Made by a program: the position numbers and the translations under genes | Shown: positions 14,630-60,083 of the stretch, piece by piece | How positions within the stretch are numbered: position 1 is the stretch's first letter | Layout of the letters: each line of letters starts with the position of its first letter | The notes under the pieces: model-generated | Seen by the model: the letters and a program-made list of their open reading frames with translations, nothing else | What the model was told of the DNA's origin: nothing | Database searches by the model: none | Assembly: GCA_943354385.1 (NCBI GenBank) | Contig: CALRBR010000002.1 | Location: 4,208 to 68,207 of the forward strand | Length of the DNA stretch: 64,000 bases | Reading direction: 5' to 3' | Source of the DNA: Candidatus Tayloriibacteriota bacterium | Lineage (GTDB): Bacteria; Patescibacteriota; Minisyncoccia; Phycocordibacterales; PALSA-1337

Positions 14630-14971
14630 ATGCTCCCTAGAGAAAGGAGAGTACATAAAGAAGAGTTTGGAGAGGTCTTGAAAAAAGGCCTTTCTTTTCA
14701 TTCTGCGCATATTTCCTTGAGAGGGATTAAGAAGGACGATGTCTCCCCTAGCAAGTTTTCTGTAGTGGTCTCAAAAAAGTTTGCTATGCTGGCAGTGGAT
14801 AGAAATCTGATTCGGAGACGAGCGATTGCTGTCATTGAAGCACATGTAACCGGTATGAAAAAAGGTATTTCAGCTATTTTTTCTTTTAAAACAGGTGCAT
14901 CTAAACTTTCATCCCAAGAGATAAAGACGGAGATAATCACTTTGCTCAAGCAGTCTGGACTAATTTCGTAA
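14630..14971 (+). CDS. rnpA: ribonuclease P protein component
   Basis: 113-aa basic protein in the canonical rpmH-rnpA-yidC arrangement. Confidence 0.75.
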   Translation: MLPRERRVHKEEFGEVLKKGLSFHSAHISLRGIKKDDVSPSKFSVVVSKKFAMLAVDRNLIRRRAIAVIEAHVTGMKKGISAIFSFKTGASKLSSQEIKTEIITLLKQSGLIS

Positions 14972-15105
14972 ATCCCTCGACTAACGTCTGCTGAGTCGAT
15001 CGTTTGTGATCGACACCTGTAGACGGCCTCTATGAAAGGAAGAACGTAACCCGAATTAATTCCTCCTTTTCTAAAGGAGGTGGTGAGTACTCGAGACGGA
15101 GGATT
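14970..15105. repeat. MITE/REP-like modular repeat (family 1), copy between rnpA and yidC
   Basis: Contains core gctgagtcgatcgtttgtgatcgacacctgtagacggcc and arm attcctccttttctaaaggagg...gagacggaggatttt. Confidence 0.7.
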
Positions 15106-15153
15106 TTATTATTTTGATTGATTACTCAGACTTAGTGCGCTAATATTACCCTT

Positions 15154-15894
15154 ATGTTCACTTTATATCACGAAATAGTTTATCAGCCATTATATAACGG
15201 TCTCATTTTCCTAATCGATGTAGTGCCTTGGGCAGATGCAGGTATTGCGGTGGTGATTTTGACAGTATTGGTAAAACTTATCCTCTTCCCTCTTTCTAAA
15301 AAAGCTATCGTCACTCAGGTGCGGATGAAAGCGCTTGAGCCAGAGCTTGCAAGTATTCGTGTAAAATATAAGGACGATAAGCAAACCCAGGCACAAAAGA
15401 CGATGGCTTTGTATAAGGACAAGAAGATCAATCCTTTTGCAGGTATTGTGGTGATTTTGATTCAGTTCCCTATCATTATCGGACTCTACTCTATCTTTTT
15501 GAAGTCTGGATTGCCGACCATTACTACCGACTTACTCTATTCGTTTGTCTCGACTCCAAGTGTTGTGAATATGCACTTTTTGACTTTGGTAGATATTGGT
15601 CAGAAAAGTCTCTGGCTCGCACTCATTGCAGCAGCAACGCAGTACTTTCAGATTAAATTTGCAATACCGACGATTACCCCTGCCACATCTACCGGAGCAA
15701 AGCCGACTTTCCAGGAGGACCTTGCTCGCAGTATGCAAGTACAGATGAAGTATGTGTTTCCTGTCATGGTTTTCTTTATTTCGTACAATATTCTCTCAGC
15801 AGTAGCGCTTTATTGGACAGTCAGTAACCTGTTTGCGATCGGTCAGGAGATTGTGGTGCGAAGGAAGTTTCACCTTGGGGAGAGTAATAAGTAG
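15154..15894 (+). CDS. yidC: membrane protein insertase YidC (short form)
   Basis: 246 aa with five predicted TM segments. Conserved YidC/Oxa1 core. Follows rnpA. Confidence 0.85.
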   Translation: MFTLYHEIVYQPLYNGLIFLIDVVPWADAGIAVVILTVLVKLILFPLSKKAIVTQVRMKALEPELASIRVKYKDDKQTQAQKTMALYKDKKINPFAGIVVILIQFPIIIGLYSIFLKSGLPTITTDLLYSFVSTPSVVNMHFLTLVDIGQKSLWLALIAAATQYFQIKFAIPTITPATSTGAKPTFQEDLARSMQVQMKYVFPVMVFFISYNILSAVALYWTVSNLFAIGQEIVVRRKFHLGESNK

Positions 15895-16067
15895 AAGTAG
15901 GATATATGGACAAAGACTCAACGGCCGACCCCACTGGGGTCGGCCGTTGAGTCTTTGTTATAGGTGGCATGTTTAGTAAGAACCGTTCTTGCAAAGATAG
16001 TAGTGAGGCTAGTCTGACTAGCCTCACTACTACGATAGTCCGACTATCATAAACCTGAATCAATCTT

Positions 16068-17336
16068 CTACCTCAGATCAAAACTCCACAGCGTCAGGTC
16101 AGCTTTGTTGATAAAGACCAGGAGGTCCTCCCTACCACTCAGCATGAGGTGGGTAATGTCGATATCTTGTCCGGAGAGATTTTTGAGGTCGGCTACCCAT
16201 TCAAATACTCCAGAGAGTGTATCTATTTTCCAAATCTCATCACTAAATAAAACCTTGCCTTGATACCAGGCGTCAGGGTATTTTCCGGCAGTGATTACGA
16301 GGGGTACCCCACAGTACAAGACGGTTTTTTCTTTTTTACTCCAAACACATTTTTCAGGCAAGGTGGTTAAGCCAGCGGGCTCCACCCTATTTTTCTTAGT
16401 GTCGTATACAAACAAAGCCAATCCATCTTCTGTGCTATTTGAAAATAAAACTTTAGAAGTGTCGGTGTTGGTGAGTGTGGTCAGGCCGTTTATTCCACCG
16501 AGAATTTTGGTGGTTGCATTAGTTAGTGTCGATACAAAATAAAGGAAGCCCGGACTATTTGAAAGCGCTTTGGTGGTAAAGGTCAAGGTATTTTCGGTAG
16601 GCCATTCAACAAGCCAGCTTTTGAGCGAAGAGTCGAAAATCTGCACCTTTTTTGAGCCGTCTGTTTTTGAAATAATTCCTACTACCCCGCCTGTAGTGTT
16701 TGAGGTGAGGTATGCCATACGGTCTTTTGCTGGAGATAGTACAAAGCCTTGAATATTTGAGCCTAGGAAACTCGGAGTGATTTTGCTCGAAAGAGATCCT
16801 TCGAGGGAAGTGCTAGAGGCCTGGAGTAGAGACGGACTGCTCATGGTTACCAAGAAGCTGTCTATGGTCTGGGCGTCGTCTTTTAGTTTTTGTACAATAA
16901 GAGCATTGTTTTTGTCTGTCCAAAACGCATCATAGATTTTTATCATTGGCGTGTTGGAAAGTTTGATGGCTTCAGTCCCCCCTACCTTGTTTTGATAGAT
17001 ATAACCTGTGCCTCGCTCAATATATCGAACTACAGTGCTACTACCACTGGTATATATGCCGGCACCAGCTACAGGGACAAGGGAGAGGTGTTGTAGGATC
17101 GGTCGGGTCGTTCCAGAAACAGGAGGCTTGTTGCCAGAACCCGTGCCTGTGGACGTGGTTCTATTCCCCCCACCAAATATGCCACTACCAAATGGAAATG
17201 GATTGCTGTCGCCATCCTCAACGGTATTTGTATCGACAATAGTAGAGGGTTTAATTGATAAAAAGAGGTACGCAATAGCTCCCCCAAAGAGGATGAGAAG
17301 AAAAGTGACTAAAATAATAAGGCTTTTTTTGGACAT
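16068..17336 (-). CDS. secreted beta-rich (propeller-like) protein, hypothetical
   Basis: 422 aa. N-terminal TM/signal anchor, Gly/Ser/Thr-rich linker, repeated beta-strand blocks. First gene of the co-oriented T4SS-like block. Confidence 0.5.
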   Translation of the reverse strand: MSKKSLIILVTFLLILFGGAIAYLFLSIKPSTIVDTNTVEDGDSNPFPFGSGIFGGGNRTTSTGTGSGNKPPVSGTTRPILQHLSLVPVAGAGIYTSGSSTVVRYIERGTGYIYQNKVGGTEAIKLSNTPMIKIYDAFWTDKNNALIVQKLKDDAQTIDSFLVTMSSPSLLQASSTSLEGSLSSKITPSFLGSNIQGFVLSPAKDRMAYLTSNTTGGVVGIISKTDGSKKVQIFDSSLKSWLVEWPTENTLTFTTKALSNSPGFLYFVSTLTNATTKILGGINGLTTLTNTDTSKVLFSNSTEDGLALFVYDTKKNRVEPAGLTTLPEKCVWSKKEKTVLYCGVPLVITAGKYPDAWYQGKVLFSDEIWKIDTLSGVFEWVADLKNLSGQDIDITHLMLSGREDLLVFINKADLTLWSFDLR

Positions 17337-17338
17337 GT

Positions 17339-18511
17339 CTATGGATTACTGCTAACTTGTGCGTTTGTTAACGCTCTTTCTCGGTCAAGTCCTTTTTGAT
17401 AGGCTTCGTCAATCTTTTTTATTCTTTCACTGGTGTATGCCCTTATCGCTTCTGCCTCAGCGGGGTATGTTTTTAAGAATTTATTATACACTTCGTTACT
17501 TCGTTTGCTGACATCTCTTTTGACATTCCTGATATTTTCCTCGAGCGCCTTTTGGTTGGTTGTTCCACCAGGAACATAAAATCTGGACGCGGCAGTAAGT
17601 GCTTTTTGAATGTCATACTCTTGATCAAGTTTTGTAAGGTCGATAGCTTTTTGGGTCTTGAGCAGGTCGATATTAGAGGTTATTTCCATTGCACCATCAG
17701 GTTCATCTGATTGTTCAATTTCTGATCGTTCTTTTTCTAACTTAAGAATTGCTTCGTTGTAGTTTCTTTCTGTGTTTCTTTTTCCACCGTCGATAATATT
17801 TTTAATTGTTTCCGCATCCTCTTTAGAGGTATCTTTTGAAAAAAACTGAAACACATCATTCTTTATACTTACACTTTCTGCCTTTGCAAGAACGCTGTCT
17901 CTTGCGACGTTGGTTTTACATTTTAACTTCGCGTTATTTGCGGCAACCTCATCTCCTGAGAGTCTTAAATCTTCTGCTTTTTTATTGCATTCGTCGAGCG
18001 CTGCTCTGACAGCGTCGAGCTTTCGATTATTTTCAAGGTATGGATCTACATACTGAATTCGCTTCGCCAATTCTTCTGTTTTTATAGGCTCCAATCCCCC
18101 GCTAAACTCTAGTAGCTGTGGGTTTATGGTATTTAAAATAAGGAAAGAGCCGAGGGCGAGGCCGAGTCCCCAGAGGGCACCCTCGATTTTTTCCTTTCCC
18201 TCGCTTTTTCCCCTGACAGCATCGGTACTCATATACTGGAATCCTCCCCAAATAATCATAAAGACTGCGAAGACACCCGCGAGACCGATACCAATCTTGA
18301 ACATTTCTTTGAGATATGTAGCGATATTTACGCTAGGCTTTGAAACACCACCCACCACCAGAGGCTCGAGGAGGCAGTATTCGTCTTTTGAAGATACACA
18401 CGGTGTTTTTTTCTCAGTAGCTGTTGAACCTGTTGTTTTGGAAACATCTACTTGTGCCTCTACATCTGTTGGAACAACAAAAAAAGCACTGATATAAAAC
18501 ATCACCATCGT
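17339..18511 (-). CDS. membrane protein with VirB2/TrbC-like double hydrophobic hairpin and long coiled-coil C-terminus
   Basis: Signal-like N-terminus, then two hydrophobic helices (IGIGLAGVFAVFMIIWGG / LWGLGLALGSFLIL) separated by a short charged loop, as in T4SS pilins, followed by ~250 aa of coiled coil. Start moved to M94: the upstream 93 codons of the track ORF are encoded by a MITE copy. Confidence 0.45.
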   Translation of the reverse strand, partial: TMVMFYISAFFVVPTDVEAQVDVSKTTGSTATEKKTPCVSSKDEYCLLEPLVVGGVSKPSVNIATYLKEMFKIGIGLAGVFAVFMIIWGGFQYMSTDAVRGKSEGKEKIEGALWGLGLALGSFLILNTINPQLLEFSGGLEPIKTEELAKRIQYVDPYLENNRKLDAVRAALDECNKKAEDLRLSGDEVAANNAKLKCKTNVARDSVLAKAESVSIKNDVFQFFSKDTSKEDAETIKNIIDGGKRNTERNYNEAILKLEKERSEIEQSDEPDGAMEITSNIDLLKTQKAIDLTKLDQEYDIQKALTAASRFYVPGGTTNQKALEENIRNVKRDVSKRSNEVYNKFLKTYPAEAEAIRAYTSERIKKIDEAYQKGLDRERALTNAQVSSNP

Positions 18512-18567
18512 AGCGAGTAGAGTGGATGCGAATACTTTTTTAAGAAAGAGGGTTTTAAGGTTGATAT

Positions 18568-18713
18568 TAATTCCTCCTTTTTTAAAGAAGGCCGTCCACA
18601 GGTGTCGATCACGAACGATCGACACGGCGAGTACTCGAAACGGAGGATTTTGAGCGATGAAAAAATCCCTCCTTCGCAGTAGCGAAGTGCTCCCTTTAGA
18701 AAAGGGAGAATAA
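18568..18713. repeat. family-1 MITE-like repeat
   Basis: Terminal inverted arms aattcctccttttttaaag ... ctttagaaaagggagaataatt. Internal hairpins gtcgatcacgaacgatcgac and ccttcgcagtagcgaagg (CAGTAG loop). Confidence 0.75.
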
Positions 18714-18796
18714 TTCCCGTACAGTCGACATAGAAAAGGGAGAATGGGGAGCGAGTCAGTAAAAAATTTTTTAAAAATAATGTTTTTCATCTTGTA

Positions 18797-19852
18797 TTAA
18801 AAGGCAACCTCTTTACTCTTGGCATCAAAAGATATTGAAAAGTCGTACCCTGCATTTTGGAGAATGTTCCTACTATTTTCTATTCCCACACTTACCCCCA
18901 CACTTCCAGCTTCGGCCTGACCACTCCTCCTTAGAGTGACACGATTTTTCTTTGCTACTCCACTGATATCAGCACCGTTCATGCTCCAGAGATAGTCAAG
19001 GTGTGTTACGGCCGGTGTTTTGCCTGAAAAATAGTATGGCACTGCCACAAAAGTCGCCTCGTCATTGGATAACGTAAATGTATCCAAAAGAGCTTTATTG
19101 TAAAGCACTCCATAGATAGGGTCATCCTGGTAGACCAAAATAGACGGTCTCTCTGGATCGAGCTCAAGATCGGCACTAGCACGAGTCCCGTCAGCCATAG
19201 ACGAAACCTCGACAGAAATCTCAGTCGCCTTTGGCAAGAGGGTTCCTAAAAAAGAAAAGCTGTCCTTACCATACCCTGAGTCACTTCCCTGCACCACTCC
19301 ATCCATACTCCACTTATATACGAGATTTTTAGCGCTCAATTTTTTGCCATTGACCCCCAGCAAATTTGGAATAGCGACCACGGTGACAAAGCCCTGATTG
19401 ACATAGGGTGACCGGCCTTTGTAAAAAGGCGGGGTGTAGCCACTGGTCTCCCAGACGAGGTCGACTTCTCCGGGACGGATGGGAATGTTTTTGCGAATCG
19501 TTCTACCCGAAACAGTAACGATGACAATATCGATAGATGAAGGGGTACCGAGAGACCCCGTGCGGAACTCAAACCGATTCAAACCAATCGCTTTTTGCAT
19601 TTGTTTACCATTTAAAAACCAGGCGATGGTAGCGCGGTCGAGATCGGTAGAATAATTTTTAACAGTAACACTGACGAGTGTATTTGGACCAGGGCGACTC
19701 GGTGACACTTCTATTTCCAAAGCATCGGGGATAGCGGTCATGAGCTGGGCGTGCAAAGGTGTAAGAGGAGTGCAAAACAAAACCCCAGCGAGTAAGGCAA
19801 ATCCAAAGATACAAAATTTTTGAGAAACGAAAGAATAGGAGTTTGACCGCAC
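18797..19852 (-). CDS. secreted hypothetical protein
   Basis: Signal peptide FVSQKFCIFGFALLAGVLFCTPLTPLHAQ. Start set at GTG 19852: no ATG precedes the signal peptide, and the upstream part of the track ORF is MITE-derived. Confidence 0.4.
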   Translation of the reverse strand: MRSNSYSFVSQKFCIFGFALLAGVLFCTPLTPLHAQLMTAIPDALEIEVSPSRPGPNTLVSVTVKNYSTDLDRATIAWFLNGKQMQKAIGLNRFEFRTGSLGTPSSIDIVIVTVSGRTIRKNIPIRPGEVDLVWETSGYTPPFYKGRSPYVNQGFVTVVAIPNLLGVNGKKLSAKNLVYKWSMDGVVQGSDSGYGKDSFSFLGTLLPKATEISVEVSSMADGTRASADLELDPERPSILVYQDDPIYGVLYNKALLDTFTLSNDEATFVAVPYYFSGKTPAVTHLDYLWSMNGADISGVAKKNRVTLRRSGQAEAGSVGVSVGIENSRNILQNAGYDFSISFDAKSKEVAF

Positions 19853-19853
19853 C

Positions 19854-19998
19854 AATTCCTCCTTTTTTAAAGTAGGCCGTCCACAAGTGTCGATCACAAA
19901 AGATCGACACGGCGAGTACTCCAGACGCAGGATTTTGAACGTTGAGAAAATCCCTCCTTCACAGTAGTGAAGTGCTCCCTTTAAAAAAGGGAGAATAA
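19854..19998. repeat. family-1 MITE-like repeat
   Basis: Same architecture. Hairpin ccttcacagtagtgaagg. Confidence 0.75.
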
Positions 19999-20042
19999 GA
20001 AAAATTCTTTGAGAAAGTTTCCATTTCATTGCATATATTTTA

Positions 20043-20549
20043 TCATACCCGTGGTCGGATGTCTTGCATCGATCTCTCGGGTGGCTGTGGAGAATTAATC
20101 GGCATGTTTGTATCTGGAGAAGATGTGTCATTTGGTAATGGAGGTGGACCAGATCTGGGGCTGTTTTGTGCTGGACCTTCTTGACCTTCTTGTCCTTTTG
20201 CATTGGCTTCAGCTACCATTTTACCTCCAGGGACTTTCGCTAGGGCCTCCTCCGCCTTGACGGTGCTCCAGGTAAAGAGTATATCCGCAGTCCACAGTGG
20301 GAGTGCATCTACACCTGGAATCATTTCACCCACAAAAGCGCCAAGCATTGCCAGCATTCTTTTTGGGTTCGCGAGTTTGACACCCTGGGTTCGCAAGAAG
20401 AGTGGAAGCCCGACCCCAATAGCGATGTCTATAAAACGATTAACCACAACCCCAATAGCAAAAAAATCAAGGACAATCTGTAGAATGTCTATTATTACAA
20501 ATAGACCAACGAGCAGTCTCCACCTAGTTTTAGTAAGTCTACAAGCCAT
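20043..20549 (-). CDS. small polytopic membrane protein with Pro-rich tail (pilin/VirB2-like candidate)
   Basis: 168 aa. Two to three TM helices followed by a disordered P/Q/G-rich C-terminus. Confidence 0.4.
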   Translation of the reverse strand: MACRLTKTRWRLLVGLFVIIDILQIVLDFFAIGVVVNRFIDIAIGVGLPLFLRTQGVKLANPKRMLAMLGAFVGEMIPGVDALPLWTADILFTWSTVKAEEALAKVPGGKMVAEANAKGQEGQEGPAQNSPRSGPPPLPNDTSSPDTNMPINSPQPPERSMQDIRPRV

Positions 20550-20578
20550 TTGGGAAGTTTAAAGTTTAAGGATTTTGA

Positions 20579-20724
20579 GTTATTCTCCCTTTGTAAAGGC
20601 CGTCTACAGGTGTCGATCTCGAACGATCGACTCAGCAGACCAGCAGGCTGAGGATTTAGGAGATTCGGGTTTCAAATCCCTCCTTCACAGTAGTGAAGTG
20701 CTCCCTTTAAAAAAGGGAGAATAA
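20579..20724. repeat. family-1 MITE-like repeat
   Basis: Same architecture. Precedes the virB4-like ATPase gene. Confidence 0.75.
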
Positions 20725-20728
20725 CCCA

Positions 20729-22537
20729 CTACTGGTTCGCCAGCTCGTCTTTTGCTCGCTTTATAGCGAGGACCTGCTCGGGGTTGGTGGTGATGATCTG
20801 GTCCTCGGTGTATGAAGCGATCACCTTGATAGCCACATGTTTGAGGCCGACAAAGAAGATCCCCTCTCCAATATCCGACTCGAGCAGGAGATACTTCTCC
20901 TCGTCGGTAAGGTTGAAGGTTTTTTGAAGTATATCCATCGAAGACGGCGACTGCTTGAGCAATATCTGAATAGAAGAGTTGGTAATAATCGGCAATCCGT
21001 AAGGAGATTTTAGAAAGTCGTCCACGTCTTGAGTAATAGTCGCAAGGCCGAGATAGTATTTTCGTCCTCGTTTTGCGAGCCCAAGCAAGAACGATGCGGT
21101 GTCATCGGATTTCATCATCCACCATGCCTCGTCGATGACGAGTAGACGCTTTTTGAGATTCTTGCGGATAGCGTTCCAAATATAGTGGGTGACAATGTAC
21201 ATGGCTACCGGCTTGAGCTCGTCTTCCATGTCGCGGAGAGAAAAGACCACGAATTTTTTATTGATATCTACATTTGAAGGTCGATTGATAAAGCCCGACC
21301 AAGTACCTTTTGTATATTTACTGAGCTTTTGTACCAGCGACTCCCCTCCTTCCATGCCCGCAAGCACGAGCTCAAAGTCAGAGAGAAGTGGTGGCTCAAC
21401 ACTTTTAAAATCAGACTCGGCGGTGATATCTTTGAGTGCGTATGTCTCGGTAATAGCTCGGTCGATGATCGCGTCCTCCTCCTGAGTCAGTCCCCCCATC
21501 ATGATACGGAAAAGGCCCACGAGATTGACAATGTTTGAGCGGAGTACATCCGAGGCCGACTCGTCTTCTCGAGGTATTGGAAGGTCAAAGGGATTTATAT
21601 GGTGTTCTGAAGTAAGTGAAATATTGAAATATCTACCACCCACTGCTTCAGACATGTACTCGTATTCTTTTTCTGGGTCGATGACGATAACTTCAGTTTC
21701 AAACATTAGTGTTCGGAGTATTTCCAGCTTTACGGCGTAGGACTTACCAGAACCGGCTTTGGCAAAGGTTACTGAGTTGTAGTTTTCTAGCAGGAAGCGG
21801 TCAAAAAGAACGAGGCTGGAGTTGTGACGGTTGATACCATATAGAATACCTTTGTCAGAGGTGAGGTCAAATGAGACGAATGGAAAAAGACTTGAAAGTG
21901 GTGAGGAGTTGAGCTTTGAGTGCACATTGAGCTCATCGGTAGCAATAGGTAAAATACTTTTGTACCCTTGCTCCTGCTGGAAAAGGGCGGGCTTGAGGTA
22001 GACGAGCTTTGATTCCAGTACTGATTTTATCTCGGACTCTGTTTTGTCGAGCTCCCCTGCACTATCTCCATATATAGTAATGTATACACCGACGTCAAAA
22101 AGTTTCTCCTGGGCCTGCTGGAGATTGTCGCGAAGCTGTTCGAGATCACGATAAGCGGTGTCGAGCATCGGATCGCGCACGAGACCTTTTTCTTCTCGTA
22201 CATTGATCTGGCTTTGTACCTCGGCTACCTTTTTCTGAAATGTTCGGAGAGCTTTGGCGGTATCTACCGGGTGAATGAAAATAGAAATATTAAAAACTTT
22301 GTCGAGGTTTATGATTGGTGCAAACCAGCTATCGGAAAGAAAGCGAGGGTATGAGATCACGAAAAAAGTGCGGGCAATTTTCTCTCCTAGATTGAGTTCT
22401 TTTGGACTGACTTTCAGCGCAGATGGAGCAATAATGTCTTTTAGCTCGAGTATGCCAGCCTCATATATTTGCTGTGGCAAAATAGATGCGATGGGCACCT
22501 CTTTTTTACTTCCAAATAAATTAGAAAATATTCCCAT
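20729..22537 (-). CDS. VirB4/TrbE/CagE-family type IV secretion ATPase (C-terminal ATPase region)
   Basis: 602 aa. Walker A FAKAGSGKSYAV, Walker B LLVIDEAWWMM, conserved VirB4 motifs (VIDPEKEY, ATQ). Lacks the usual N-terminal ~200 aa. Confidence 0.8.
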   Translation of the reverse strand: MGIFSNLFGSKKEVPIASILPQQIYEAGILELKDIIAPSALKVSPKELNLGEKIARTFFVISYPRFLSDSWFAPIINLDKVFNISIFIHPVDTAKALRTFQKKVAEVQSQINVREEKGLVRDPMLDTAYRDLEQLRDNLQQAQEKLFDVGVYITIYGDSAGELDKTESEIKSVLESKLVYLKPALFQQEQGYKSILPIATDELNVHSKLNSSPLSSLFPFVSFDLTSDKGILYGINRHNSSLVLFDRFLLENYNSVTFAKAGSGKSYAVKLEILRTLMFETEVIVIDPEKEYEYMSEAVGGRYFNISLTSEHHINPFDLPIPREDESASDVLRSNIVNLVGLFRIMMGGLTQEEDAIIDRAITETYALKDITAESDFKSVEPPLLSDFELVLAGMEGGESLVQKLSKYTKGTWSGFINRPSNVDINKKFVVFSLRDMEDELKPVAMYIVTHYIWNAIRKNLKKRLLVIDEAWWMMKSDDTASFLLGLAKRGRKYYLGLATITQDVDDFLKSPYGLPIITNSSIQILLKQSPSSMDILQKTFNLTDEEKYLLLESDIGEGIFFVGLKHVAIKVIASYTEDQIITTNPEQVLAIKRAKDELANQ

Positions 22538-22628
22538 GGGATAATTATAGCTTAAATGTTGACGAGCACGAAATTCTTTCTTGGAGTATATTGTGGTTTT
22601 TCATGAGAGTTGTTGTCATTTTTTTGTA

Positions 22629-22743
22629 TTATTCCTCCTTTTCTAAAGGAGGTGGCTCGTACTCGAGACGGAGGATTTGTGTCTTCTGGTAAAATCCCTC
22701 CTTTCCAGTAGTGAAGGGATCCCTTTAGGAAAGGGAGAATAAT
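22629..22743. repeat. family-1 MITE-like repeat (short form) between the two virB4-like ORFs
   Basis: attattcctccttttctaaaggagg...cctttccagtagtgaagggatccctttaggaaagggagaataat. Confidence 0.75.
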
Positions 22744-22750
22744 ACAGTGC

Positions 22751-23398
22751 CTACGTCAACTGTATTGGCTTTTCCATATCTCCTGGATTGAAAATGCGGT
22801 AGTAGAGCTCGATAATTTCTTCGGTACCGAGCTGTACCACGCGAACACCAGATCTGACGAGTCCCTGCTCTACCACACTCATTCTTTGCTCTAGCTGACT
22901 GCGGTGTTCCTCAAAATCCTCTATTTTCTGCTTACCAGCATCTTCGGATACAGAAGGTTTTTTTCCTAGAAGCTTGCCCATGAAGTTATCTTTTGTTTGC
23001 AGGAGCGGTGGTGAGTATGGGATAACAACAAAAAAGCTTTTGGTCATGATGCTCGAGTTGTCGGTAAAGTTTTTGATAAATTCGATATATTCTCGCGTCT
23101 GAATTTTCATCAAGTCCCCCATTTGTTCCTTGTATCTGTTTTCGAGGAGTGCAATATAGGGTCTGATGTCTAGGCGTTTTGATTGTACAAATATTTGTAT
23201 AGAAAAATCTAGGGAGTTTAATAAATTTTGAAACTGATAGATGATGGAGTTTTGCTCGTCGGTCGATTTGAGAGCGAAGTTTAGAGATGAAGCCATGAGT
23301 ATTCCACGCATACCACCGTCTTTGAGAATGACCACGCCATTTTTGACCTCTTTGATCGGAACAAAATCTTGAGTTGTTTTTGAGCTTGCAGTCGCCAT
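22751..23398 (-). CDS. hypothetical protein, candidate detached N-terminal domain of VirB4
   Basis: 215-aa ORF immediately upstream of the VirB4 ATPase, separated from it by a MITE copy. Combined length (817 aa) matches full-length VirB4. Confidence 0.4.
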   Translation of the reverse strand: MATASSKTTQDFVPIKEVKNGVVILKDGGMRGILMASSLNFALKSTDEQNSIIYQFQNLLNSLDFSIQIFVQSKRLDIRPYIALLENRYKEQMGDLMKIQTREYIEFIKNFTDNSSIMTKSFFVVIPYSPPLLQTKDNFMGKLLGKKPSVSEDAGKQKIEDFEEHRSQLEQRMSVVEQGLVRSGVRVVQLGTEEIIELYYRIFNPGDMEKPIQLT

Positions 23399-23445
23399 AG
23401 GTAAATTATATCATGAGATGTCCAGAAGTATGAAATGCCTTGCAT

Positions 23446-23591
23446 CATTCCTCCTTTTTTAAAAGGAGGCCGTCTACAGGTGTCAATCATAAACGATTGA
23501 CTCTGCTGGTACTCCAGACGGAGGATTTTTAACTCTAACAAAATCCCTCCCTCACAGTAGTGAAGGACTCCCTTTAGAAAAGGGAGAATTA
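23446..23591. repeat. family-1 MITE-like repeat
   Basis: Full-length copy with CAGTAG hairpin cctcacagtagtgaagg. Confidence 0.75.
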
Positions 23592-23620
23592 GTTCTCGTA
23601 AATCTTGCTTCTACCCAAAT

Positions 23621-24061
23621 CTACCTCTGTCTCTTATCCGAATATACACTGTTGTTTATATCCAAACTCCAAGTAAGATCCTTGAGCTTACTGTCGGAAA
23701 GCTTTGGTACAGAAAGCATTGGAATGTCCTCCGTCGATTCGTCGGGGACACCACTTACTACTGGCCGATCATGTTTTTTCCAAATATATAATTTTTCATT
23801 TACCACATATTTGAACGCAGATTCTACCAGAGCAGAAAAAGGCATCGGGCTCGGATTGTAGGGTTTATAAAAGGCTAGAGCTCCTGCAAAAGCGAGGATA
23901 GGTAGGATCAGGATAAGACTAATATAGATAGGCACAGGCAGAAACTGGTACACCATAAAAGACATTCCTAGTCCCCCACCCATATATACAAACTGTTTAA
24001 AGGTCAGCTGGCCAAATATCTTGTCTTCTATTTCTATAAATTGTGGGACTTGGAAGCGCAT
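23621..24061 (-). CDS. VirB3/PrgI-like small membrane protein
   Basis: 146 aa. N-terminal QF.EIEDKIFG..T..QF motif followed by two TM helices. Positioned directly upstream of virB4-like genes, as VirB3 usually is. Confidence 0.4.
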   Translation of the reverse strand: MRFQVPQFIEIEDKIFGQLTFKQFVYMGGGLGMSFMVYQFLPVPIYISLILILPILAFAGALAFYKPYNPSPMPFSALVESAFKYVVNEKLYIWKKHDRPVVSGVPDESTEDIPMLSVPKLSDSKLKDLTWSLDINNSVYSDKRQR

Positions 24062-24105
24062 GGGGCAAGCTTAAAATTAAAAATGCAAAGTTTGAGAGTC
24101 TTGAG

Positions 24106-24160
24106 TTATTCCTCCTTTCCTAAAGGAGCTGGCTCGTAATCGAGACGGAGGATTTAATCT
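24106..24160. repeat. family-1 repeat, left half, flanking DUF559 gene
   Basis: ttattcctcctttcctaaaggagctggctcgtaatcgagacggaggattt. Overlaps the last codons of the DUF559 ORF. Confidence 0.6.
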
Positions 24161-24482
24161 CTCGCACGACACTCTCTATATTATACCTCACATCCGCATC
24201 ACTAAACCTAAGGAATCGGATACCTTTTAATTCTAACATATTCTGTCGAATAATGTCCGCTTCGACTTTACTATCATGACTCACCCCATCTATCTCTATA
24301 GCTAGGTTTAAAGTGTGGCAGTAAAAATCAACGATATATTTATTAACAGGTCTTTGTCGTAAAAATTGATATCCAAGTTTTTTCTTTTTTAACTCTTTCC
24401 ATAATAATACTTCTGCAAGATTGCCTGATTTGCGTAGGTTTTTTGCAAGAGGCTTGAGATTTTTATGATAGATGAGCTTCAT
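24120..24482 (-). CDS. DUF559 (Vsr/PD-(D/E)xK-like) endonuclease-domain protein
   Basis: 120 aa. Characteristic ...YIVDFY...LAIEIDG..H.... pattern. Last ~12 codons are encoded by a MITE arm. Gene is nested between two halves of a MITE copy. Confidence 0.7.
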   Translation of the reverse strand: MKLIYHKNLKPLAKNLRKSGNLAEVLLWKELKKKKLGYQFLRQRPVNKYIVDFYCHTLNLAIEIDGVSHDSKVEADIIRQNMLELKGIRFLRFSDADVRYNIESVVREIKSSVSITSQLL

Positions 24483-24497
24483 TTTTTAATGAAATCT

Positions 24498-24636
24498 AAA
24501 TCCTCCGCCTTTCAGGCACCTCCTTTAGAAAAGGAGGAATAATTCGGAATCCATACCCATTCTCCCTTTCCTAAAGGCCGTCGACAGGTGTCGATCACGA
24601 ACGATCGACTCAGCAGGCTCCAAGCCGAGGGATTTG
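24498..24636. repeat. family-1 repeat, right half plus additional core module, flanking DUF559 gene
   Basis: aaatcctccgcctttcaggcacctcctttagaaaaggaggaataattc followed by ccattctccctttcctaaaggccgtcgacaggtgtcgatcacgaacgatcgac... Confidence 0.6.
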
Positions 24637-24638
24637 AG

Positions 24639-25490
24639 CTAAAAAGTCTCTCGGTAAGGATCTGCTTTATACGGTGCTTGAGGCGCAGAAGGCTTTTGGG
24701 AGATGACTGTGGTGGCCGTGACGACTACTCCACTGAGCTTGGCGCTGACGATGTTGTTGGCTGGGGCGGCGGGTGTTTTGGGAGCAGGTTGAGTTTGAGG
24801 AGGTGTGGGGTAGGAGTGATTGTTTTGCGGGACGATCGCTGGCAGATCATTGTCGTTATGTGCCACAGGGAGATTTGATGGAGCGGGAGAGGTTTTGGCT
24901 ACAGCAGGTGAAGCCACGGTATTATTCCTAGCAGGGATAGTCCTTGCTAGGGTTATGGGAGCTGGGTCCTCGATGTCGTTTTTAGCAAGGACCGTCCTTG
25001 CTAAGGTTGTTGGAGCCGGATCCTCGATGTCGCGGAGGATATCTTCCCTCTTTAGAGTCGCGTGATGCTCGTCGGTCTCGACGGGATGCTCGCTGTCAGG
25101 GGCGAGATTGGAGGTTTTATCGTCTGATAACGTTGTGTTTGTCGTGCCAGCTCCCTCTTCCTCAAGAAGTGGTGCTTGTTCGGCGAGCTTTTTCAATGAT
25201 TCTCTAATGGCTAAGAAAATCTCATTATTTACATCTCTGGCAATCATTTCGGCTACACCCTGAGATACTTCGAGCTTTTTTCTAATACTTGTGACAAAAT
25301 TATTGGGATGAGTGAGTCCGAGCATAACCATATCTGTAGTGGCGTACAAAGCACCAATTTTGTCGACGTGCAAGGAATGTTTTTCACCTATTTTGTTTAT
25401 TTTTGATCCCAGATTAGAATATTCTATCGCCCGCTGTATCTCGGGAGGTAAGGAAGCTATTATTTCTTGTCGAGTTTTTTGTTGAGACAT
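24639..25490 (-). CDS. hypothetical protein with disordered Pro/Ala/Thr-rich C-terminus
   Basis: 283 aa. Structured N-terminal ~110 aa, then low-complexity repeats (EDPAPTTLARTVLAKN twice). 3' end abuts a MITE. Confidence 0.45.
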   Translation of the reverse strand: MSQQKTRQEIIASLPPEIQRAIEYSNLGSKINKIGEKHSLHVDKIGALYATTDMVMLGLTHPNNFVTSIRKKLEVSQGVAEMIARDVNNEIFLAIRESLKKLAEQAPLLEEEGAGTTNTTLSDDKTSNLAPDSEHPVETDEHHATLKREDILRDIEDPAPTTLARTVLAKNDIEDPAPITLARTIPARNNTVASPAVAKTSPAPSNLPVAHNDNDLPAIVPQNNHSYPTPPQTQPAPKTPAAPANNIVSAKLSGVVVTATTVISQKPSAPQAPYKADPYRETF

Positions 25491-25527
25491 TTTTTAATAT
25501 GTGTAACTAGAGTAATATTTTATTCTA

Positions 25528-27624: not shown

Positions 27625-27627
27625 ACT

Positions 27628-29301
27628 TTAATTTGGTCGTAAGGGCGAGGTGTTTGGAAAAGATGCACACTCTGTGAGTTTGCGAGACGTCTCGACATTT
27701 AATGTATCCATTGTAGCAGAGATGGCGGTTTTTTGTTGCTTGGCTTCCCCAATATCTAGCTCATTATAGATTTTACCGGGGCCGTCGTTGGTAGCCATAG
27801 TTTGATATTCGGTGGTTGCCGCCAGAGTGTCCTGGAGCGATTCTGTAGCACTTATTTTTGTTTTAAGTTGTTGTAATTTTCTAAGGACATTATCGGCTGA
27901 GCTGATGTCGTTCGCGATATCTGATTTTGGTTTATCTATATCTGTTTGTATTTTAGTGCGAGCATTGGCTGATCGAATAGTAGCCTCTGCAATATCAGAA
28001 CTTGAAAGAGGTGGTGTCTGAGGGGTAGTGATTTTATTGGTATAGCACGATGCTAGCTGATTGAGTTTGCTTTCGGCACCGGTGAAGGCGCTAAGAGTGC
28101 TTTCTTTTTCAGTTTTAAATTTGCCGACAGTAAGGATTGACTTTTCGACACCTTGCTTGCCCTTTGCGTCAATATTTTTAAGGGTATCCGTATCCTGAGC
28201 TGCACCGAGCTTGTCGAGATATGATGAGCCATCGTATTGGGTATCATTGGCACCTTTGAGGCCACTTCCCCCACCAACCACCTGGTTTACCAGCTGGGCA
28301 AAAAGGGCGTTCACTATTTCATTGAACTCATCGGCAAGACCGAGACCATCGATACTACTACCGAGCACTTTGCCGAGCTGGCCTTCGATGACAGAGCCAG
28401 GGGTGTTGATTTTACAGCCAGTTTGCTCTTCCATTTTAAGCATGTGCTTGTAACCAGCGGCAGCTTCTTTGTCGTAATTATCGCTGTTTTTGTCCCCTGT
28501 TTCTGCCAGCTGGCTACGGTATTCTGCTGCATTTTCAGAGTTTTTACCGGTGCAATCACTTTTAAATGAGAGAAACCCTCGGCCTTGGCCGAGCTCGTCT
28601 TTGCCGAGAACTTGTTTTTGGTTGATGCGTAAAGAAAGCTCGTTTTGAGCCATCAGTGTGGCACCGTAGACATTGTTTTGGGGCTGAGTAGTGAGAGAAA
28701 GCCAGCTGTTCCAGCCACCATTTTTGAAATTGCCTTTGGTAAAGCTTCGACCGTTTATACTAGCGCCGTCGATTGCACCGCCTACATTTTTGACGATATC
28801 TGTGAAAGTACAGGTAACTCTTTTCTTGAAAGGCGAATATTGAAAGGCCAGGGCGATACGAAGATCGATATTAAACTCTTTACAGAGAAAATTGAGGTCA
28901 GAAGAACCCTCGATAAATTTACCAATCTCTTCACTTGCGATGTTGGTAAAAAAGCCTGCAGGGTCGGTGACAAAGGACGGGCTACCCTCAAAGCCAGTGT
29001 TGATCCACTTGACCACGCTGGTGGTGATCTGCCGGAGAATGGCTTTGACGATATATGTGACCAGACCGTCGAGGACGAACTCTTTGTACTGGACGGCGTA
29101 CGTAGCAATATTGGATCCGATAGCGCCCAATGCGGTAACGGGAGCAGATACCGCAGTAACTGTGTTCTGGACCGTGTTGGCGACATCGGCCGTAAGAAGT
29201 TGGGCACTCGCTTTCTGAGATTGTATAAAAAAAGTCGATGAAAAAACAAAAGTGAAGATAAGTGCTGCTGATATGATTTTGTGAAAGATGTTCCCAATCA
29301 T
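27628..29301 (-). CDS. large secreted protein, hypothetical
   Basis: Start at M20 (MIGNIFHKIISAALIFTFVF...ASAQ signal), 1 nt after the upstream gene's stop. Gly/Asn/Ser-rich with several Cys. Confidence 0.5.
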   Translation of the reverse strand: MIGNIFHKIISAALIFTFVFSSTFFIQSQKASAQLLTADVANTVQNTVTAVSAPVTALGAIGSNIATYAVQYKEFVLDGLVTYIVKAILRQITTSVVKWINTGFEGSPSFVTDPAGFFTNIASEEIGKFIEGSSDLNFLCKEFNIDLRIALAFQYSPFKKRVTCTFTDIVKNVGGAIDGASINGRSFTKGNFKNGGWNSWLSLTTQPQNNVYGATLMAQNELSLRINQKQVLGKDELGQGRGFLSFKSDCTGKNSENAAEYRSQLAETGDKNSDNYDKEAAAGYKHMLKMEEQTGCKINTPGSVIEGQLGKVLGSSIDGLGLADEFNEIVNALFAQLVNQVVGGGSGLKGANDTQYDGSSYLDKLGAAQDTDTLKNIDAKGKQGVEKSILTVGKFKTEKESTLSAFTGAESKLNQLASCYTNKITTPQTPPLSSSDIAEATIRSANARTKIQTDIDKPKSDIANDISSADNVLRKLQQLKTKISATESLQDTLAATTEYQTMATNDGPGKIYNELDIGEAKQQKTAISATMDTLNVETSRKLTECASFPNTSPLRPN

Positions 29302-58598: not shown

Positions 58599-58727
58599 AT
58601 TCCTCCTTTTCTAAAGGAGGTGGCTGGTACTCCAGACGGAGGATTTTAAATCCCTCGGCTTGAAGCCTGCTGAGTCGATCGTTTGTGATCGACACCTGTA
58701 GACGGCCTTTAGAAAAGGGAGAATGAA
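58599..58727. repeat. family-1 MITE-like repeat
   Basis: ccattcctccttttctaaaggagg...gtcgatcgtttgtgatcgacacctgtagacggcctttagaaaagggagaatg. Confidence 0.75.
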
Positions 58728-58771
58728 TACAAAACCTCTGCGACCCAAAATTGCGGAGTGTTTTTGAAAGA

Positions 58772-59863
58772 TTATTTCTTACCTACAAGCAAATCAAACA
58801 CCTTTTCATTGACCAACATTGACTCGACGTAGTTGCGAACACGATTGAGATCAGCGTCCGGGTAGTGCTCTAGGACGGCCTTGATTTCTTTCTCAGCTCG
58901 CTCTGGATCGGCCGTAATTTTTTCGGTCTCAGCTATTTTGTGAAGCACGATCTGTAGAGTCGCACGCTTCAGAGCGTCTCCCCTCCATTCTGCACGCATT
59001 TCTTCGCGAGTCTTTTTGAGGTGTTTCATATAATCCTCGGCTTTGATGCCCATACGAGTGATGTCGTCGTTGAACTGAGCTTCCATTTTGTCGAGCTCGG
59101 CTTCTACGATCACCTTTGGCAAGTCAGCCTTAGTTTCCTTGATCACCGCCTCGGCAATCTCAATGCGCTTTTTCTCGTTGGCCTTATGTTCTTTATCTTT
59201 CTGAATATTTTCGGTTACTTTGGCCTTAAAATCAGCAACATCCTTGAAATCGCCGACAGTTTTCACAAAAGCGTCATCAAATACAGGAAGGGATGTCTCG
59301 ACAGCTTTGTCATGATCTTCTTTGCTCATTTTGGCATGGTCGTGGCCGGTGTGGTCGACTCGACTTTGACGGATTTCCATAATAACCGCTTCAATTTCTT
59401 TTTCAGTTACGGTGACTTTCTCTACCGGCTTTGCATTTTCTTTATCGGCAATCTTTTTGTAGTCGGGGAGAGTGACTTCTGGCATCACGGCAGTTTTGAT
59501 TTTAAATGAAAGGTCACTTCCCACGGCGATCTTGGTCAGAGCGATTTCTGGACGGCCAATAGCGTCAATTTTGTGCTCGACAAGCAAGTCTGGGTACATT
59601 TTACTGATAGCGATCTCGGCCATCTCCTCAAGTACTGCCATTTCGCCCACTTTGGTCACGAGCATCTTTTCAGGTATTTTGCCTTTGCGAAAACCGTCTA
59701 TTTCGGCATTTTTACCGATATATTCTAGTGCTTCTTTGCGAAAAGGGGCGAGCTTGTCAGCGCTGATCTCTCCGATGATCTCTATCTCAGAGTCAGGTAA
59801 TTTGGTGGTTTTGATGTTTGAATACAGCACAGCTTTTGGTGTTTTTTCTTCGGTTTTTTTCAT
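58772..59863 (-). CDS. tig: trigger factor (short form lacking a recognisable PPIase domain)
   Basis: Start at MKKTEEK (59863). GFRKGKIP ribosome-binding signature. Long helical C-terminal arms. Upstream 36 codons of the track ORF overlap a family-2 repeat. Linked to clpP as usual. Confidence 0.7.
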   Translation of the reverse strand: MKKTEEKTPKAVLYSNIKTTKLPDSEIEIIGEISADKLAPFRKEALEYIGKNAEIDGFRKGKIPEKMLVTKVGEMAVLEEMAEIAISKMYPDLLVEHKIDAIGRPEIALTKIAVGSDLSFKIKTAVMPEVTLPDYKKIADKENAKPVEKVTVTEKEIEAVIMEIRQSRVDHTGHDHAKMSKEDHDKAVETSLPVFDDAFVKTVGDFKDVADFKAKVTENIQKDKEHKANEKKRIEIAEAVIKETKADLPKVIVEAELDKMEAQFNDDITRMGIKAEDYMKHLKKTREEMRAEWRGDALKRATLQIVLHKIAETEKITADPERAEKEIKAVLEHYPDADLNRVRNYVESMLVNEKVFDLLVGKK

Positions 59864-59907
59864 AGTTTCAACAGTGTAGCGTGTGGGTGGGGAATTGGCA
59901 AGCGCCC

Positions 59908-59996
59908 GCCGATTTGTAGGAAGCGGAGCGACGATACAAATCGAGCGGACCGAAGTACCCCCTTCGGTCAAGGCCGATAAAGCGAAGCAACCTTAT
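59908..59996. repeat. family-2 repeat (inverted)
   Basis: ...gcggagcgacgatacaaatcgagcggaccgaagtacccccttcggtcaaggccgataaagcgaagcaacc. Confidence 0.7.
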
Positions 59997-60007
59997 TGAA
60001 TTTGAAA

Positions 60008-60083
60008 ATCCATCGGCACGGAGCCTTCTGAGTCGATCGTTTGTTGATCGACACCTGTAGACGGCCTTTACAAAGGGAGAATG
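60008..60083. repeat. family-1 repeat fragment (core plus right arm)
   Basis: ctgagtcgatcgtttgttgatcgacacctgtagacggcctttacaaagggagaatg. Adjacent to a family-2 copy. Confidence 0.6.

Follow-up and report, generated by a model that had tools for sequence, protein, structure and literature searches.

Dispersed palindromic repeat units in a Patescibacteria genome and their association with a DUF559 endonuclease gene

The repeats scattered over the 64-kb stretch of DNA analysed here (hereafter, the window) are small palindromic units of selfish DNA in a reduced Patescibacteria (Taylorbacteria-like) genome. The evidence supports a modular and dispersed family of the MITE/REP type, and the link between its units and a DUF559 endonuclease gene is well supported. 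We consider it probable that the unit pairs represent a gene-less, MITE-like version of a homing-like mini-element of about 430 bp that carries this gene, and we infer that the nuclease mobilizes the units. This reading points to a possible role of the DUF559 proteins, a large family for which no function is known.

The palindromic unit measures 42-82 nt and follows the consensus 5'-ATTCYCCYTTT-loop-AAAGGRRG-[variable hairpin]-GRRGGATTT-3'. It can be read as an outer hairpin (P1), in which a pyrimidine arm CYCCYTTT would pair with a purine arm AAAGGRRG, followed by a variable inner hairpin (P2) and a 3' purine third arm, GRRGGATTT. Short units (S, 15 copies in the window) and long units (L, 10 copies) differ by a 34-nt module, a putative hairpin present in L only. 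The 25 copies occupy 14 sites from 14970 to 60083 (Table 1), and no further full copies were recovered by nhmmer with profiles derived from the window copies themselves. These numbers are far above chance: the 20-mer GTCGATCGTTTGTGATCGAC has nine matches in the window with none expected, and the arm CCTTTAGAAAAGGGAGAAT has 16 with 0.02 expected. The units are arranged in nine tail-to-tail pairs, two head-to-head pairs, two units around the DUF559 gene and two solo units. Gene-less pairs span 96-143 bp, and the ends of tail-to-tail pairs form terminal inverted repeats (ATTCYCCYTTT...AAAGGRRGAAT), sometimes lengthened by GTATT/AATAC or GAGTT/AACTC. A sequence-only reading of this DNA had proposed a modular repeat family, which is real, as are all the modules that it listed. 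The 100-150-bp element that it described exists as a composite of two inverted units, but the entity that repeats is the 42-82-nt unit.

Table 1. Repeat units and unit-associated features in the window (S, short unit; L, long unit; strand in brackets).
Arrangement	Position	Context
Head-to-head pair	L 14970-15044 (-); S 15059-15106 (+)	between rnpA and yidC
Tail-to-tail pair	L 18570-18650 (+); S 18663-18711 (-)	12-nt spacer TGAGCGATGAAA
Partial head copy, additional	18725-18745	beside pair 18570-18711
Tail-to-tail pair	L 19855-19935 (+); S 19948-19996 (-)	91% identical to the 18570 pair
Tail-to-tail pair	L 20582-20657 (+); S 20674-20722 (-)	between VirB4 and 168-aa gene
Tail-to-tail pair	S 22631-22678 (+); S 22692-22740 (-)	between TraC-like gene and VirB4
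Tail-to-tail pair	L 23447-23528 (+); S 23541-23589 (-)	between PrgI and TraC-like gene
Gene-carrying form, 24108..24540 (-)	S 24498-24540 (-); DUF559 gene 24120-24482 (-); S 24108-24155 (+)	
L unit	24559-24635 (+)	adjoins gene-carrying element, head-to-head with unit 24498-24540
Tail-to-tail pair	S 30343-30384 (+); S 30395-30438 (-)	between ksgA and next gene
Pair inside ksgA/rsmA	S 30700-30747 (+); L 30749-30824 (-)	within segment 30694..30876
Tail-to-tail pair	S 35522-35572 (+); L 35580-35655 (-)	between M23 peptidase gene and asnB
Solo S unit	54038-54085 (-)	adjoins copy of unrelated 94-nt repeat family (53927-54020)
Tail-to-tail pair	S 58599-58646 (+); L 58648-58724 (-)	1-nt spacer; between rsmE-like and trigger-factor genes
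Solo L unit	60006-60083 (-)	adjoins copy of 94-nt repeat family (59909-60002)

The sites are unevenly distributed, ten of the 14 falling within 14970-30824, which is 25% of the window (binomial probability about 3e-4). The earlier claim of one copy per gap does not hold, since four operon gaps (17336/17339, 25490/25528, 27624/27628 and 29303-29358) are free of units. Several units touch gene boundaries. The stop codon of rnpA is supplied by the tail of the adjacent L unit (cgTAAatcc), and the 5' extensions of ORFs 17339-18790 and 18797-20203, into which copies had been noticed to reach, are read-through of units and not real coding sequence; that of the former runs spuriously through the pair 18570-18711. 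Similar contacts had been proposed for two 3' ends: ORF 24120-24482 does end inside a unit, whereas ORF 24639-25490 only abuts one, its stop lying 3 nt from the L unit. Local tandem duplication does not account for the family, as copies at 35522, 54038, 58599 and 60006 have different flanks, the L core also occurs in unrelated contexts in two other Patescibacteria genomes, and orthologous gaps differ in occupancy between relatives. Units were found in 21 loci from the other sequences retrieved. The flanks of 27 pairs showed no consistent direct repeat that would qualify as a target-site duplication. Empty and filled sites were too diverged to define exact junctions.

The window holds a single DUF559 gene, and it sits exactly between two inverted units, its last codons and stop falling within the downstream one. 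Inverted units surround the gene in the window and in eight further loci (L003, L010, L013, L016, L017 and L020-L022), in at least five different genomic contexts. Tail-to-tail spacers are bimodal: 17 measure 1-16 nt, and eight, which contain the gene, measure 337-383 nt. A single spacer of 255 nt fits neither class, and no DUF559 gene remnant accounts for it (the gene of L099 is situated outside the pair). The C-terminal peptide ..SPPPLxKEE*, a translated unit, is present in 53 of 120 DUF559 homologues. Among 79 metagenomic loci with a DUF559 gene, 46 have flanking inverted repeats that exceed the 99th percentile of a null (about one locus expected), and the other 33 are below this threshold. 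More distant DUF559 genes have very different flanking repeats in the same architecture, which argues that repeats and gene evolve as one element and did not meet by chance. At a few more distant loci (L041, L099), the units face the gene head-first and not tail-first. We found no orthologous site at which the same two units occur both with and without the gene.

As judged from its sequence, the 120-aa DUF559 product is a Vsr/EDxHD-type PD-(D/E)XK nuclease. The ORF matches PF04480 in Pfam (E=8e-28), and a profile of 37 homologues matches 3hrl (E=1e-20) and the homing endonuclease I-Bth0305I (3r3p, E=1e-4) in the PDB. The catalytic motif D..ExDG..HD is invariant in these 37 proteins, with D52, E63, D65, H69 and D70 invariant or nearly so. 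Upstream of the DUF559 ATG lies the third arm, GGAGG(G)ATTT, at a distance of 0-2 nt in relatives and 15 nt in the window. As observed earlier, native genes show no obvious Shine-Dalgarno sequence: 39 of 43 have no such string, and TATAAT precedes the ATG by about 7 nt in many genes. The AGGAGG-like strings that the units were said to place next to gene starts are correctly spaced for a start codon at the DUF559 gene only.

The occupancy of the syntenic type IV secretion (T4SS) operon was compared gap by gap among eight related genomes, whose VirB4 proteins are 98-99% identical. The number of insertions in operon gaps ranges from zero to eight per genome: eight gaps are occupied in the window (plus the ksgA insert), three in L008, one each in L107 and L113, and none in L110. 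This range between relatives indicates that copies have been gained or lost independently. The TraC/VirB4 gap measures 7 nt in five genomes versus 200-216 nt where a pair is present, and the gap between VirB4 and the 168-aa gene holds in relatives S+S, or L+S in reverse order, or is empty. Between PrgI and the TraC-like gene, L017 and L114 have the same pair as the window minus only the 34-nt L module. The pair between ksgA and the next gene has orthologues in L008 and L107 and is missing from L009 and L110, and that between the M23 peptidase gene and asnB is absent from L008. Contigs of the same species (L100-L105, 97-99.5% identical) have exactly the layout of the window, ksgA insert included, and so give no sign of the recent or ongoing mobilization suggested earlier.

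One pair lies within coding sequence. In the ksgA/rsmA ORF (30501-31448, minus strand), the segment 30694..30876 differs from L008 and L009: it has 182 nt where they have 23 nt, which lengthens the gene by 159 nt (53 codons) net without a shift of frame. The insertion holds one unit pair and no stop codon, and both flanking domains are conserved. It includes about 27 nt past the L unit (30825-30851), among them GGGGAGAGA, a sequence also present at 18746. The nearest KsgA homologues, of 262 aa, do not have the insertion and are 79-88% identical outside the gap. The insertion is kept in 13 contigs encoding a 99%-identical KsgA protein, six of which were inspected at the sequence level. The sequence-only reading had overlooked this pair.

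In all 51 distinct units, the third arm changes in step with the P1 arms without exception, giving three arm/third-arm types (AAAGGAGG/GGAGGATTT, AAAGGGAG/GAGGGATTT and AAAGGGGG/GGGGGATTT). The third arm mirrors the purine arm, and the three combinations are compatible with the G.G-C, A.A-T and T.A-T rules for intramolecular triplexes of the antiparallel type (H-DNA).

The common 100-140-bp composite consists of two units tail to tail. In the scenario that we favour, it is the gene-less counterpart of a full form in which the 120-aa DUF559 gene sits exactly between the two tails, and the third arm would provide this gene with the ribosome-binding site that native genes lack. Cleavage by the nuclease may occur at or close to the palindromes of the units, or where two tails meet in a palindromic junction, and recombinational repair of the break could then copy units, modules or the gene between copies. 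Such copying would explain both the mix-and-match modules and the differences in occupancy between species. Rarely, copying might also reach new sites, just past stop codons. Insertions would be retained wherever they do no harm: in the gaps separating genes that apparently have their own leaderless promoters and, in one case, in the linker that joins the KsgA domains, where the reading frame is kept. Several points count against this reading: no DUF559 protein is a known mobilizer of DNA, a PD-(D/E)XK nuclease is by itself incapable of strand transfer, neither a target-site duplication nor a clean empty-site junction was definable, the window has 25 units but one DUF559 gene, units at L041 and L099 face the gene head-first, 33 of the 79 metagenomic loci fell below the inverted-repeat threshold, and same-species contigs lack polymorphism, so that activity is not demonstrably current. 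It is tempting to go further and to propose that DUF559 proteins in general serve as nucleases for a previously unrecognized class of tiny palindrome-nested mobile elements, whose triplex-prone ends would be recognized by the nuclease and whose gene-less pairs would spread via its breaks, including as in-frame gene insertions; we regard this generalization as unlikely.

The DUF559 gene could instead be a secondary invader of pre-existing repeats. The palindromic family would then be older and independent, and the gene a free-standing homing gene that entered the tail-to-tail junction (GGATTT-N-AAATCC), with the units acting only as homing site and homology arms. The exact fit of the gene between the tails, together with gene-less spacers of 1-16 nt and one of 255 nt, is what a homing site either empty or occupied by its gene would show; the junction is a near-perfect palindrome that would suit a homodimer, the DUF559 family is homologous to I-Bth0305I, and the excess of units over genes points the same way. 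This explanation nevertheless leaves the arrival of units at new sites unaccounted for, and it sits poorly with the shared architecture of distant DUF559 genes whose repeats are very different and with a third arm positioned as the ribosome-binding site of the gene. We hold it to be possible, if rather unlikely. Movement in trans by a RAYT (an IS200/IS605-like Y1 transposase) encoded elsewhere, the DUF559 association being incidental, appears highly improbable. Short imperfect palindromes in inverted intergenic pairs do recall REPINs and BIMEs, and GTAG or GTAC occurs in several P2 loops and in the L module. However, a Pfam scan of the approximately 60 window ORFs revealed neither a Y1 domain (PF01797) nor any other transposase family, and it is the DUF559 endonuclease whose gene is physically linked to the units, an association that recurs over many genomes and repeat sequence types. 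No REPs are known that flank a RAYT gene 0-2 nt from its start codon while carrying its ribosome-binding site.

Host recruitment was also weighed, the pairs being structural elements kept by selection as insulators or terminators, RNase processing or mRNA-stabilizing hairpins, or recombination sites. Predicted folding is indeed strong on either strand (z = -2.7 to -11.7), and P2 forms a hairpin in 80% of the 51 distinct units (41 different sequences) versus 27% of shuffles, so that its hairpin potential survives many sequence changes; copies are, moreover, enriched between genes of one operon and stable within the species. Against this, both strands fold equally well and both orientations occur, a terminator-like tail is present at one copy only, one pair is intragenic, and close relatives have the same operon with one element or none. 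Searches with Rfam 15 covariance models gave no match for any unit at E<=1, and the CUGAUGA string of a single L unit lacks both conservation and a following GAAA core. These results speak against the terminator or sRNA role suggested earlier, and host recruitment in general seems very unlikely to us.

With the gene-less form of a DUF559 element as our preferred reading, the units can be compared with several known systems. The pairs show several features of MITEs (less than about 300 bp, non-coding, many dispersed copies, terminal inverted repeats) and resemble the Correia/NEMIS elements of Neisseria and the BOX elements of Streptococcus pneumoniae, which are likewise small, non-coding, present in many copies with terminal inverted repeats, and co-transcribed in operon gaps; the modularity recalls boxA-B-C. 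Unlike for these families, a TA-type target duplication is not demonstrable at the units, and their putative parent encodes a nuclease from a family in which no transposases are known. In Rickettsia palindromic elements (RPE), as here, palindromic repeats of 100-150 nt populate a reduced genome both between genes and in frame within genes whose ORF stays intact, with no classical transposase associated. Sequence homology with RPEs is not expected, as the host phylum of the units is Patescibacteria. The composites described here differ from RPEs in consisting of two smaller inverted units with swappable modules, in a single in-frame case (KsgA), and in having a nameable linked nuclease gene; none is known to have been named for RPEs.

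The REP/BIME/REPIN systems with their RAYT share with the units short imperfect palindromes, mostly in inverted intergenic pairs, and a single gene copy flanked by repeats alongside many dispersed gene-less pairs. The flanked gene here, however, encodes a predicted PD-(D/E)XK Vsr-like nuclease and not an HUH Y1 transposase, and the units (42-82 nt, versus 20-40 nt for REPs) combine a pyrimidine/purine hairpin with a third purine arm and include one intragenic pair. Finally, Vsr-like (EDxHD) homing genes reside within group I introns or between split inteins, and the gene that they home into is unique, whereas the DUF559 gene, whose nuclease activity is putative, has a copy of a dispersed palindromic repeat on either side and no intron or intein. 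With homing endonucleases of this type, such as I-Bth0305I, it shares a homologous catalytic domain, a small size, a selfish-gene context and, as the bimodal spacers suggest, its presence or absence at an otherwise conserved site.

The repeats in this window form a genuine modular, dispersed family, as the sequence-only reading had proposed. The 100-150-bp elements with inverted terminal arms described there are pairs of units facing tail to tail; the arms are real, but the repeating entity is a smaller palindromic unit. A 20-mer of the long module has nine matches (≤3 mismatches) against none in shuffled sequence, the terminal arm has 16 matches against 0.02 expected, and a repeat finder recovered the same families. 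Side-by-side comparison of the copies gives the unit as 5'-ATTCYCCYTTT-(3-4 nt)-AAAGGRRG-linker-[variable hairpin P2]-GRRGGATTT-3', the first two arms forming an outer hairpin (P1). Short (S) units measure 42-51 nt, and long (L) units (75-82 nt) are S units with the module CCGTCnACAGGTGTCGATCnnnnnnGATCGAC inserted past the first hairpin; in one pair that is otherwise identical in a close relative, the two genomes differ by a clean indel of just this 34-nt module. A census of the nhmmer type, also recommended in that reading, was run in the window with profiles made from the copies and found 25 units (15 S and 10 L) at 14 sites in the 64 kb, and no others. They are arranged as nine tail-to-tail pairs (ATTC...ATTT, spacer, AAAT...GAAT), two head-to-head pairs, two solo units and two units that bracket a gene. 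The gene-less tail-to-tail junction reads GGAGGATTT-T-AAATCCCTC. Two further genomes share the L core, one a Candidatus Taylorbacteria MAG and the other a Patescibacteria MAG, which places the host among the CPR/Patescibacteria.

Only one gene of the window is physically part of the repeat system. It encodes a 120-aa DUF559 protein (PF04480, E=8e-28), a Vsr-like PD-(D/E)XK endonuclease, and lies exactly between two S units facing tail to tail, its ORF terminating within the downstream one. Among the loci fetched from related genomes, unit-bracketed DUF559 genes occupy the rpiB-rpe gap (L003, L010), a place beside rpiB (L016), the interval between ftsK and recA (L013) and the orthologue of the window site (L017), and three further genes are bracketed likewise (L020-L022). 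Across all fetched loci, tail-to-tail spacers are bimodal: 17 gene-less pairs have 1-16 nt, and the eight pairs with the gene have 337-383 nt. The one spacer of 255 nt (L099) is not a decayed gene, and the DUF559 gene of that locus lies outside the pair. In relatives, the upstream unit end, ...GGAGG(G)ATTT, sits 0-2 nt 5' of the DUF559 ATG (15 nt in the window); judged from sequence, the shorter spacing would suit a ribosome-binding site, and DUF559 would be the only gene here with one. At least 53 called proteins in a set of 120 DUF559 homologues have a C-terminus ..SPPPLxKEE* or similar, which is the flanking unit translated up to the TAA after GGAGGAAT. Annotators should be warned that translated repeat units make up the ends of many 'DUF559' ORFs and, in the window, the starts of several ORFs. 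In the L013 genome, a related Taylorbacteria, the unit-flanked DUF559 gene lies a few hundred bases from recA, whose intein contains a LAGLIDADG endonuclease.

Coordinates of the repeats and associated features (window positions unless a locus is named)
Feature	Locus	Coordinates	Remark
DUF559 gene		24120-24482 (-)	
S unit upstream of DUF559		24498-24540	
S unit downstream of DUF559		24108-24155	
Gap holding DUF559		24062-24638	
NYN-domain gene in orthologous gap	L009	6661-7197	opposite strand
NYN-domain gene in orthologous gap	L110	6295-6828	opposite strand
NYN gene of the window		43013-43654	adjoins other repeats
recA with intein	L013	6875-9298	
ycjD	L106	1351180-1351840	E. coli K-12, NC_000913.3
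ORFs with repeat-derived 5' extensions		17339-18790, 18797-20203	
ksgA (rsmA)		30501-31448	
Inserted segment in ksgA		30694-30876	
Pair in ksgA		30700-30824	
Extra sequence past L unit in ksgA		30825-30851	~27 nt
Terminator-like copy		23548-23586	
L unit with CUGAUGA		35580-35655	
XerC/D-like gene		44308-45267	
AATCCCCCGCGACGCAGTCGCGGGG hairpins		42962-42995, 47933-47966, 63859-63892	at gene ends
Hypervariable stretch		24896-26513	
Its counterpart	L100	14981-16610	same species
~90-nt palindromic element	L008	17048-17155	PrgI/TraC-like gap
~90-nt palindromic element	L113	4487-4612	PrgI/TraC-like gap
Second family (~94 nt)		10921-11012, 14353-14444, 44145-44238, 48772-48863, 53927-54020, 59909-60002	
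Third family		13-73, 2321-2381, 33734-33895, 42802-42909	
Third family	L009	10576-10688	VirB4-downstream gap
Inverted repeats of 107 nt		51072-51178, 51964-52070	

A metagenome scan with the DUF559 alignment returned at least 526 relatives. Among 79 loci with enough flank, inverted repeats bracketing the gene exceeded the 99th percentile of the null at 46 (about one expected). Many of the flanks have quite different sequences and follow a common plan, a C-rich/G-rich hairpin and then a G-rich arm by the start codon. The catalytic residues are invariant among homologues, and the profile matches PDB entry 3hrl (E=1e-20) and the homing endonuclease I-Bth0305I (3r3p, E=1e-4). DUF559 has been classed with Vsr and an intron homing endonuclease in a review (PMC3424549), and a published table shows it over-represented, with an odds ratio of 14, among predicted targets of programmed inversion (PMC9881135). 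In E. coli, a perfect 17-bp hairpin lies at the start of the DUF559 gene ycjD, C-rich/G-rich hairpins (CCCCTCGCCCCTCTGGGGAGAGGGTTAGGGTGAGGGG) lie past its 3' end, and ~37 nt of that end are duplicated downstream, surroundings that appear reminiscent of the unit-flanked architecture.

Hairpin potential is kept in the units despite sequence change: P2 takes 41 different sequences in 51 units, and it folds at -2 kcal/mol or below in 80% of them, against 27% of shuffles. In all 51 distinct S units, the 3' arm and the two arms of P1 vary together, in three types: CCTCC, with GGAGG as both purine arm and 3' arm (18 units); CTCCC, with purine arm GGGAG and 3' arm GAGGG (26 units); and CCCCC, with GGGGG in both places (7 units). 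These represent few independent events because the units share descent. In the informative type, the 3' arm mirrors the purine arm and repeats it neither directly nor in inverted form. An intramolecular antiparallel triplex (H-DNA) requires a mirror purine repeat after a pyrimidine/purine hairpin, and we hypothesize that the unit ends could be triplex-prone structures of this kind. In the unrelated repeat families flanking other DUF559 genes, mirror and direct third arms could not be discriminated because the arms are G-rich.

Between 16 and 30 kb, the minus strand carries a type IV secretion-like operon, among whose products are a VirB4/TraG-like ATPase, PrgI and a T4SS pilin-like protein; the operon adjoins ksgA/rsmA and uvrD, with dnaA, dnaN, rnpA and yidC just upstream. 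We reached nine syntenic copies of this operon in relatives via KsgA, DUF559 and PrgI homologues. Their VirB4 is 98-99% identical to that of the window, and gap occupancy varies widely: eight gaps plus one intragenic pair in the window, three gaps in L008, one each in L107 and L113, and none in L110. In five genomes the TraC-like/VirB4 gap is just 7 nt long, whereas a gap with a pair spans 200-216 nt, and one operon gap contains S+S, S+L or the order-reversed L+S across relatives. Units have thus been gained, lost or exchanged on the time scale of species divergence, and the differing occupancy refutes local tandem duplication, the alternative that the sequence-only reading had set against a dispersed family. 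Its suggestion of recent or ongoing mobilisation was not supported: the same-species contigs L100-L105, 97-99.5% identical, have exactly the layout of the window, with no insertion polymorphism over ~21 kb. For target-site duplications at copy boundaries, 27 pairs were compared by their flanks and five alignments set empty against filled sites, in which divergence blurs the exact junctions; no consistent direct repeat emerged. At the DUF559 site, relatives have the gene-carrying form, an NYN gene or, in three of them, an empty gap of 18-31 nt. The gap has the look of a hot spot where small selfish genes insert. The PrgI/TraC-like gap of L008 and L113 holds a different palindromic element (GTCATTAGTTGATAGTT...AACTATCAACCAATGAC), and its window counterpart a main-family pair. 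The operon also includes a hypervariable stretch, whose 698-aa and 283-aa proteins are 71% and 59% identical between the window and L100.

We consider it reasonably probable that the pairs represent a DUF559 mini-element in its gene-less state. Its nuclease would break DNA either within the palindromes of the units or where two tails meet in a palindromic junction. Recombinational repair would then spread units, modules or the gene from copy to copy and, now and then, to fresh sites directly after stop codons; such copying would explain the shuffling of modules at orthologous sites. Either a parent element with deletion derivatives or a homing gene that invaded the junction of pre-existing repeats would fit; in its pure form, the second seems to us less probable than the combined DUF559-linked reading. 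Within the nine syntenic loci, we found no orthologous site with the same unit pair both with and without the gene. A RAYT-driven REP system is not supported: a search of the window for the RAYT/IS200-like mobilising enzyme that had been suggested found neither a Y1 nor any other transposase, the only recombinase being a XerC/D-like gene.

We think it unlikely that a recruited regulatory role is the main explanation, since relatives lack the elements, one copy only is terminator-like, folding, compared between strands for signs of an RNA or single-strand role, is about equal on both, an Rfam scan of the whole window (E≤1) placed no family on any unit, and one pair lies within coding sequence. 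The terminator or sRNA function envisaged earlier is likewise not supported. A hammerhead was also rejected, as the CUGAUGA of one L unit lacks a following GAAA core and is not conserved across the family. Fourteen open frames run through pairs against 7 expected, an excess too weak to build on.

Shine-Dalgarno strings, whose absence had been remarked, are missing from 39 of the 43 native genes; the AGGAGG strings that the repeats place by gene starts lie at distances unfit for a ribosome-binding role in neighbouring genes, DUF559 excepted. Many native genes have a TATAAT-like box ~7 nt 5' of the ATG (e.g. upstream of 22537, 23398, 35767 and 57855), which suggests that their mRNAs are mainly leaderless, with a promoter for each gene. 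The G+C-rich hairpin AATCCCCCGCGACGCAGTCGCGGGG, present in three copies, is possibly the real terminator of this genome.

Other repeats share the window. A second, unrelated family (six copies in both orientations, no Rfam match) has two internal hairpins, CGATTTATA..TATAAATCG and GACCGAAG..CTTCGGTC, and two of its copies directly adjoin solo main-family units. A third family of ~108-160 nt has 51-nt internal inverted arms; its L009 copy occupies a gap that in the window holds a main-family pair. Finally, two 107-nt inverted repeats, 78% complementary, bracket ~785 nt adjoining tRNA-Gly and tRNA-Pro genes, the ORFs inside having no Pfam match.

Palindromic repeats of the MITE, REP and RPE kind are well known. 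What is new is their presence and density in Patescibacteria, the in-frame case in ksgA and, most importantly, the way in which DUF559 genes are systematically nested between palindromic units. Our literature search found no description of DUF559 genes as repeat-flanked mobile elements or of MITEs in Patescibacteria, the closest precedent being the table entry on inversion targets cited above. Seen in this window and many other Patescibacteria, and at most sampled metagenomic DUF559 loci although the repeats there differ in sequence, this nesting gives a very large family without assigned function a concrete and testable one, that of a selfish, homing-like nuclease, and provides one class of palindromic repeats in bacteria with a candidate mobiliser.

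One pair lies inside the ksgA gene. The window RsmA/KsgA has 315 aa against 262 aa in its nearest homologues, with 79-88% identity outside one gap, and its Pfam match covers residues 4-194 only. Where L008 and L009 have 23 nt, the window has 182 nt, so that the gene is longer by a net 159 nt (53 codons); this stretch holds a pair, extra sequence past the L unit and GGACT past the S unit; the inserted segment is in frame, stop-free and located between the methyltransferase and C-terminal domains. Patescibacteria have among the smallest bacterial genomes, yet this one is densely loaded with palindromic repeats. In-frame palindromic insertion into genes is the behaviour of Rickettsia palindromic elements, and a repeat translated inside an essential-type rRNA methyltransferase parallels that long-standing puzzle in an unrelated lineage with reduced genomes.
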